Positions 8,166-9,273 of a DNA stretch of 9,273 nt are shown one piece after another. The DNA is from a virus (taxonomy: Duplodnaviria > Heunggongvirae > Uroviricota > Caudoviricetes). The stretch lies in the IMG/VR virus record IMGVR_UViG_2690316318_000024; one strand, given 5' to 3'. Each line of letters opens with the position of its first letter. The first letter of the stretch is position 1. A model generated the notes under the pieces. That model saw nothing but the letters and a program-made list of their open reading frames with translations. It searched no databases and was not told where the DNA came from. A program made the position numbers and the translations under genes.

Positions 8166-9273
8166 AAATAATGTCTCAGTCCCGAACTTGTATCCGCTCT
8201 ATAGCAGAAAAGTAAATAAAGTCTATTGGCGATATAAGCATCCAGTGACCGGGAAGTTTCATTCTTTGGGCGCAAACGAAGCTGAAGCCATTGCTATTGC
8301 CACTGAGGCCAATACACGCCTGGCTGAGCAAAGAACCCGGCAGATTCTGGCTATCAGTGACAGGATCGCAACCAGCAAAGGAAAAGCAATCACAACGTCA
8401 ACCTAGTTAGATCGCTATCAAGCAATCCAGGATGACAGACTGAAAAGTGGCGATATAAAGCTCAACACCTATAAACAGAAAGCCAAACCAGTATCCTTGC
8501 TCAGGGAACGAGCAGGAATGAAGTTAATTTCATCCGTTGATGTAAGGGATATAGCACAATTGCTTGACGAGTATATCACTGCTGGGCAACCGAGGATGGC
8601 GCAAGTAGTCCGCTCCGTTCTAATTGATGTATTCAAGGAGGCACAACACTATGGGGAGGTCCCTCCTGGCTATAATCCAGCATTAGCGACCAAACAGCCC
8701 AGAAGAAAAATTACCCGACAACGGTTAAGCCTTGAAGAATGGCAAAAAATCTTTGATATCGCAGATGCCAGTCATCGTTATATGGGGAATGCCATGCTGT
8801 TAGCACTGGTTACCGGTCAGAGGTTAGGTGATATCTCGCGTATGAAATTTAGCGATATTTGGGATGATCATCTCCATATCATTCAGGAAAAGACCGGGAG
8901 CAAAATCGCAATTCCTCTTTCTCTTCGTCTCAACGCGATTAACTGGAGTTTACGCGATGTAGTAGCCCGCTGCCGTGACTACGCAGTCAGCCCATACTTA
9001 GTACATTTTTTCCGTACTACTTCACAGGCCGAACGTGGCGCGCAGGTTAAATCCAATACATTGACGATGAATTTCAGTAAAGCGAGGGATCTAGCAGGAA
9101 TTGATTGGGGGGAAGGTTCACCTGCCACATTCCATGAACAAAGGTCTTTATCTGAACGTCTGTACAAAGAACAGGGGTTAGATACACAAAAACTACTTGG
9201 TCATAAAACACAACAGCAAACCGATCGTTATCATGACGATCGAGGCAAAGGATGGATCAAAGTAGCGTTGTGA
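8146..9273 (+). pseudogene. int: Lambda-family tyrosine integrase (375 codons) interrupted by an in-frame amber codon (TAG 8404-8406) at the position of a conserved Trp; catalytic residues otherwise intact
   Basis: N-terminal arm-binding region (VPNLYPLYSRKVNKVYWRYKHPVTGKFHSLG) and ...TST-TAG-LDRYQAIQ aligning with lambda Int ...HSWLDRYEKI. Downstream frame keeps the catalytic set: TGQRLGDISRMKFSDI (Arg), KTGSKIAIP (Lys), HEQRSL (His/Arg), LLGHK (His), DRYHDDRG (Tyr). The ORF track splits it into 8146..8406 and 8497..9273 (TTG start). Confidence 0.8.

Follow-up and report, generated by a model that had tools for sequence, protein, structure and literature searches.

A lambda-type integrase gene that is complete except for one in-frame TAG codon raises the question of whether the stop is real, whether the prophage that carries it can still leave the chromosome, and whether the loss is recent, permanent or conditional on suppression of the stop. 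Such a gene, int, occupies the end of the DNA stretch analysed here (9,273 nucleotides; IMG/VR record IMGVR_UViG_2690316318_000024), hereafter called the window. The answer reached below, which we hold to be highly probable, is that the window belongs to a prophage of recent acquisition and recent mobility, which two amber mutations have since grounded and made replication-defective, with its repressor, Xis and cargo unchanged.

The window is best read as one end of an e14-type, SfV/SfII-like lambdoid prophage, the end that carries the immunity and replication genes and xis-int; the prophage is inserted in the 3′ end of icd in a clone of Escherichia albertii. The adjacent chromosome, covering icd-rluE-nudJ-mnmA, reaches at best 94.1% identity among 5426 complete E. 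coli genomes, which fits E. albertii rather than E. coli. Integration into icd is indicated by locus L004, in which icd starts 1.3 kb past the int stop and the identity break between prophage and host, relative to E. coli-hosted copies, falls at approximately L004:10650, within the 3′ end of icd. The analysis covered about 20 kb of the prophage, a part without structural genes; upstream of the window, the clone's Dam, LexA-like, RusA, KilA-N, DUF968, Q, holin, endolysin, Rz and HNH genes have the same lengths as those of relatives. Positions 1-333 of the window start at a contig end inside a phage Dam methyltransferase gene, and the left part of the prophage lies on other contigs of the draft assembly.

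Cargo in the interval that separates int from icd varies among loci (L004:9274-10650, compared with L014-L023, L001 and L013). In the clone this interval holds a 256-aa ORF without a Pfam match, and in relatives it holds NB-ARC/TPR, DarT plus Macro, DUF262/GmrSD_N plus a partner, HEPN/Toprim-associated, or mSLOG/DUF488/DuOB genes; several of these cargoes look like anti-phage defence modules. A further cargo region was observed at L032:14019-16411, between the Q antiterminator and holin genes, where two minus-strand genes encode proteins of 404 aa (without a Pfam match) and 391 aa (with a PF04245 NA37 nucleoid-associated domain).

The interrupted integrase gene

The int gene (8146..9273, plus strand) was identified from its translation, its Pfam domains and a match to lambda Int structures as a tyrosine integrase of the lambda/e14 type, now a pseudogene, and its relatives are annotated as intE. 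The parental form comprises 375 sense codons, one of which has been replaced by the amber, giving 376 codons with the terminal TGA (9271-9273) included. Between the ATG at 8146 and this TGA, translation yields a sole internal stop, the TAG at 8404-8406 on the plus strand (W87*), for which the ancestral codon is TGG and the derived base is the A at 8405. When the tryptophan is restored, residues 1-73 match the Pfam family Arm-DNA-bind_1 (PF09003, E=4.3e-37), residues 193-365 match the tyrosine-recombinase catalytic domain Phage_integrase (PF00589), and the protein matches solved lambda Int structures (1z1b; phmmer, E=5.8e-57). In the phmmer alignment, the query TTSTWLDRYQ lies over lambda TLHSWLDRYE, and codon 87 corresponds to W79 of lambda Int as counted within the alignment; this codon is TGG in E. 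coli RM7190 intE and in the int of phage vB_EcoM-689R6. An earlier note on this DNA had placed the TAG on the tryptophan of lambda ...HSWLDRYEK, a placement that this alignment reproduces, and had read it as a single TGG-to-TAG transition, which is borne out by these relatives and by the parental allele described in the next section.

The description of this codon as a conserved tryptophan position requires modification. The aligned lambda residue is indeed tryptophan, but the column holds W in 68 and F in 27 of 112 aligned sequences (111 diverse representatives from a 50%-identity library, aligned with lambda Int), and the position is thus a conserved aromatic one at the start of the core-binding domain, not an invariant tryptophan. 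Downstream of the amber, the catalytic residues are preserved as had been claimed, with R226, K253, H330, R333, H353 and Y362 aligning with R212, K235, H308, R311, H333 and Y342 of lambda Int, respectively. Since codon 87 now reads TAG, no uninterrupted frame encodes the arm-binding region together with the core-binding and catalytic regions, and the int of the window, judged from its sequence, is to be classed as a pseudogene of the lambda-Int-type tyrosine integrase family rather than a working member.

What remains in the frame is a pair of ORFs, listed at 8146-8406 (86 aa) and 8497-9273. The former (8146..8406, plus strand) contains a complete arm-type DNA-binding domain, in which Arm-DNA-bind_1 covers 1-73 of the 74-position profile; it is deposited as CTW34980.1 under the NCBI product name 'e14 prophage; predicted integrase [Escherichia albertii] / [Escherichia coli]'. 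Within the latter, a gene of 251 aa has been called (CTW35021.1; 8518..9273, plus strand), which begins at M125 of Int and retains the catalytic domain together with part of the core-binding domain, whose first ~38 residues are missing. Re-initiation past the stop was considered as a source of a working integrase and was rejected: the nearest in-frame starts, TTG at 8497 and ATG at 8518, both fall deep within the core-binding domain, and an AGGA directly abuts the ATG of the 251-aa ORF with zero spacer. Expression of this ORF is doubtful, and the sole Int product makeable at normal efficiency is predicted to be the 86-aa arm-binding domain.

The truncated products could in principle have a function of their own: the 86-aa arm domain might occupy arm sites, whether in attL/attR or on incoming related phages, in a dominant-negative or exclusion role, or a re-initiated 251-aa protein might have partial activity. 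The whole Arm-DNA-bind_1 domain is inside the shorter ORF, the N-domain of lambda Int alone is known to bind arm sites, and the ATG-initiated longer ORF keeps all catalytic residues. We nevertheless regard such a function as very unlikely, since the truncation is not conserved beyond one clone, the longer ORF lacks ~38 core-binding residues as well as a properly spaced Shine-Dalgarno sequence, and arm-dependent integrative and excisive recombination by lambda-type Int requires the arm-binding and catalytic domains in one chain. The co-occurring amber in a replication gene and a later frameshift, both described below, also fit decay better.

The stop codon in independent assemblies and its parental allele

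The int TAG is present in 16 fetched loci from independent ENA, Logan/SRA and NCBI data sets, including several ENA metagenome assemblies and many Logan/SRA runs. These loci are 99.97-100% identical to one another; among all amber carriers the int DNA is 100% identical, and 0-2 differences are found over up to 18.4 kb. In the NCBI record that carries the amber (GCA_001286085.1, contig CYCK01000044.1), bases 1-9273 correspond to the window at the same coordinates. The codon is a genuine TAG inherited within one clone, because the 16 loci that carry it were assembled from independent data sets. An error of sequencing or assembly at a true TGG, for which the general possibility that attends any draft assembly is the sole argument, has a vanishingly small probability given that the identical TAG recurs across submitters and pipelines, always with the same linked markers, and this reading was ruled out on the strength of the 16 loci. 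Public runs of the clone include SRR29227490, SRR33299100, ERR137811 and DRR162460.

Outside the clone, the stop was sought in several collections. A 29-nt pattern containing the TAG gave 0 matches in IMG/VR and 0 in the JGI metagenomes, and the TGG version of the pattern gave 46 matches in IMG/VR. The species-representative genomes yielded five matches, all of them TGG. A 67-nt query retrieved 170 records from complete E. coli genomes, none at 100% and the best at 98.5%. An independent recurrence of the amber, sought as a check on the hotspot idea, was found in none of these four collections, and within the collections searched the stop neither recurs nor is retained outside the clone. Complete E. 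coli genomes contain no exact copy; their best matches reach 95.3% identity over xis-int and 97.4% over the whole window.

The W-restored Int protein is known letter for letter as P0016, which occurs on 24 contigs and carries the annotation 'site-specific integrase [Escherichia]'. Eight loci that encode this protein were retrieved, among them the complete chromosome CP030781.2 (L028); the gene lies at the same icd site and among the same neighbours in all of them, and the order is xis, int, the 256-aa ORF (169 aa in L030) and icd. The parental int allele, with G instead of A at 8405, is carried by L025, L026, L028 and L029. Comparison of the full 9273 nt with L029 shows no more than five substitutions and one 33-nt deletion in the window, and the states of the window are derived because all intact loci have the other state. 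Four of the substitutions are A in the window against G in L029: at 419 (R137C in YfdN/PerC), at 1226 (synonymous), at 1621 (Q49amber in a replication initiator) and at 8405 (Int W87amber). The fifth, C against T at 4713, is intergenic, as is the deletion at 5527. The R137C missense change lies in a YfdN/PerC-family gene (333-827, minus strand) and is a clone-specific marker, and the deletion (5527..5528), likewise clone-specific, has removed one copy of a GTTGTTGGGGA..TAACCAG direct repeat. The missing 33 nt, located between a 144-aa ORF and yfdP, are present in all intact relatives, and their loss may affect promoter or regulatory sequences ahead of yfdP-xis-int. The recency of the inactivation, one of two options in the earlier note, is thus confirmed: restoring W gives a protein already known at 100% identity, and the int DNA differs by one base.

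No changes relative to the parental allele were found downstream of the amber. The 1377 nt that lead from the terminal stop of int into icd, and which cover the att side at one end of the prophage only, are 100% identical to those of most prophages with the intact allele and 99.93% identical in L028. The host flanks of the intact copies are ~99% or ~94.5% identical to that of the amber clone, and the prophage DNA itself is 99.9-100% identical. Such identity of the prophage despite host flanks at ~94.5% indicates recent mobility: the phage has passed between E. albertii and E. coli backgrounds in the very recent past, and the amber arose after lysogenisation of the clone. The loci compared are L025, L029 and L031, then L026 and L028, and L004; their prophages at icd are near-identical (99.9-100%), and the adjacent core genes of their hosts differ by ~5.5%.

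Probable mutational origin of the ambers and decay of the prophage

The second amber, which the earlier note did not contain, interrupts a replication-initiator-like gene of 313 codons (824..1765, minus strand), which is now split into ORFs of 48 and 260 aa. Relatives of this gene are annotated as DNA replication protein O or primosomal protein, and an HTH_36 domain was identified at residues 23-70. The change from CAG to TAG (Q49*; 1619..1621, minus strand) falls inside this domain and corresponds on the plus strand to A instead of G at 1621, the first base of codon 49. The 48-aa plus 260-aa split is seen in every assembly of the clone, and the int amber, the replication-gene amber and the YfdN R137C change co-occur in every contig long enough to show them. 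For annotation, the 48-aa and 260-aa products are to be treated as one replication-gene pseudogene, in the same way that CTW34980.1 and CTW35021.1 represent one int pseudogene. In a BRCT-domain gene (296 aa; 3743-4633, minus strand), which is convergent with cI, a 1-nt deletion at codon 49 was found in a sub-lineage comprising L039 and L008; in the former, a single contig common to 11 samples, the gene lies at 5474-6364. This frameshift is a third inactivating hit, restricted to the sub-lineage. The earlier view that the gene is intact apart from its amber thus holds for the rest of int and not for the prophage, in which the second amber and the sub-lineage frameshift have accumulated.

The sequence around the int amber points to its origin. 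Position 8405 lies within an ancestral Dcm site, CCTGG, now CCTAG (8402..8406), and is opposite the internal, methylatable C of CCAGG on the minus strand, as expected for a C-to-T change at the internal C of CCWGG. Spontaneous amber hotspots in E. coli classically stem from deamination at Dcm sites, as reportedly established by Coulondre and colleagues in 1978. Nine of the 34 coding methylatable-C targets in the window, which contains 21 CCWGG sites, would yield TAG. Deamination of 5-methylcytosine produces a T:G mismatch, which results in a C-to-T change when missed by very-short-patch repair (PMC2715241). Because 8405 is opposite the internal C of a Dcm site, deamination that escaped this repair is the most likely origin of the int amber. 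The replication-gene amber, in a GTCAGA context, is outside any Dcm site; a common mutational motif for all of the derived changes was considered and rejected, as their contexts differ and the int site alone is a Dcm site. Across ~12.5 kb of the prophage, five of the six derived substitutions are G-to-A on the plus strand of the window (419, 1226, 1621, 8405 and L003:1584), an excess that may reflect strand-biased cytosine deamination in a sample too small to judge.

Of the four substitutions that fall in coding sequence of the window, two create nonsense codons, compared with a random expectation of 4.5-6% per substitution (P ~0.012-0.02 for at least two of four, a post-hoc value from a small sample). 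The Dcm hotspot accounts for part of this excess. Inactivation may also have been favoured by selection, in which case neutral decay alone would be an incomplete account.

The events can be ordered as follows. The phage would have lysogenised an E. albertii lineage at icd, and shortly afterwards a G:C-to-A:T transition would have converted int codon 87 to TAG. Translation would then end past the arm-binding domain, leaving the core-binding and catalytic domains unjoined to it in one protein; with the two domains split across the amber, Int-dependent excision should fail, as should any re-integration, and the prophage would be grounded. The locking of the prophage in the chromosome, which the earlier note foresaw, is accordingly an expected consequence of the int amber. 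An independent transition would have created the amber at codon 49 of the replication initiator, and with this protein cut inside its DNA-binding domain, the prophage should not replicate from its own origin. Fixation of these changes may have occurred by drift or by selection against an inducible killer.

The repressor, Xis, cargo and lysis genes are unchanged. The xis gene (7920..8165, plus strand; Pfam Exc) is intact and overlaps the int start by 20 nt, forming an overlapping pair homologous to annotated intE and xisE. The exact Xis protein occurs in 8009 index blocks and adjoins a full-length Int in all 10 places shown, and the claim that Xis is intact is therefore upheld as concerning a common allele. 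The cI-like repressor (3074..3760, plus strand; HTH_3 and Peptidase_S24) shows no differences from intact relatives; its Peptidase_S24 match is full-length, and an Ala-Gly site (LSAGNG), a GNS serine motif and an RVK lysine motif were recognised by eye. Sequence comparison is thus in agreement with the statement that the immunity repressor has been retained.

Recombinase mutation is an established route to irreversible lysogeny, and prophages affected in this way have been named 'grounded prophages' (PMC6379469). The present prophage has an inactivated recombinase of this kind, with W87amber derived relative to an exact parental allele. Truncated e14-type integrase fragments are also common in E. 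coli assemblies; one 159-aa fragment, for example, is found on at least 1000 contigs. Because the prophage also carries the second amber and, in a sub-lineage, the BRCT frameshift, the picture is one of progressive prophage decay or domestication rather than of a specific integrase switch. The process is a known one, an ordinary early step in prophage decay, and requires no new mechanism. The locus provides a datable example of early grounding, in which the parental allele survives unchanged in other hosts and the order of the hits can be read: first the amber in int at a Dcm hotspot, second the one in the replication gene, and last the frameshift in a cargo gene. Strains with the amber and strains with the intact allele could form a natural matched pair bearing on the benefit of grounding to the host.

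Possible suppression of the ambers and comparison with known systems

The earlier note had left room for a conditional inactivation. In such a case, the host or another mobile element would supply an amber-suppressor tRNA, lower amounts of Int and of the replication protein would be produced, and excision and replication would be tuned rather than abolished; with a supE-like tRNA-Gln(CUA), Q49 would be regained exactly and Int would carry W87Q. It is suggestive of such a system that the two nonsense codons are both TAG, and the rest of both genes is intact. However, ARAGORN detected no tRNA genes in the window, L003, L004, L006 or L032 (~30 kb of prophage and flank), and these sequences, which comprise the window, its flanks and ~10 kb of further prophage, thus contain no suppressor gene cognate to the ambers. 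The ambers are confined to one near-identical clone, with the TAG in 0 of 46 matches in IMG/VR, 0 in JGI, 0 of 5 representatives and 0 of 170 E. coli records, so that there is no retention across diverged relatives that would call for an explanation. Moreover, a single G:C-to-A:T change at TGG or CAG yields TAG in any case, one of the two sites is a Dcm hotspot, and TAG serves as the normal stop of two further ORFs of the window. Amber suppressors that act efficiently are, as far as is known, rare in nature. Suppression is highly improbable on these grounds, and the conditional part of the earlier claim is unsupported, with no tRNA gene in the ~30 kb scanned and with the amber restricted to one clone.

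A bolder form of the idea holds that the nonsense codons in the excision and replication genes, two in number and both amber, constitute a natural conditional switch that is reactivated by a suppressor tRNA or, in a variant, that the clone retains the 86-aa domain because it hinders integration of related phages. If it were true, the prophage would be proficient in excision and replication in suppressor cells and would otherwise be a harmless island of immunity and cargo; we give this proposal very little credence. Grounding by ordinary decay remains the preferred account, and it is this account that the following comparisons concern.

The prophage most closely resembles e14 of E. coli K-12 and other e14-type prophages (intE/xisE, icd), with which it shares the xis-int overlap, the annotation of its relatives as intE and xisE, integration into the icd 3′ end with a phage-borne replacement of that end, and 87-94% nucleotide identity between its int and E. 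coli intE alleles. It differs from them in having an E. albertii-like host (flank 94% identical to E. coli) and an SfV/SfII/SfIV-like early region, as well as in the ambers of int and the replication gene. Its integrase has the three-domain architecture and all of the catalytic residues of lambda Int, and its amber has replaced the residue that corresponds to lambda W79, where the core-binding domain begins. Lysogens of lambda int nonsense mutants cannot excise. In contrast to the classical int ambers, which are laboratory alleles, the amber described here is natural and fixed in a wild clone, and the identity between the two integrases is only ~40%. The int amber also resembles those at Dcm (CCWGG) hotspots, of which the lacI ambers are known examples, in that the change is at the G opposite the internal C of CCTGG/CCAGG and gives TAG, with methylation predicted from the site; the second amber of the window does not follow this pattern. 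Finally, as in the grounded or cryptic prophages Qin (intQ'), Rac and DLP12 (PMC6379469), the recombinase has been inactivated and immunity and cargo have been kept, a combination that leads to irreversible lysogeny and further decay. The present clone differs from these in the part seen, which has neither gene-block deletions nor IS insertions, and stands at a very early stage of this process, approximately six point changes away from intact copies.
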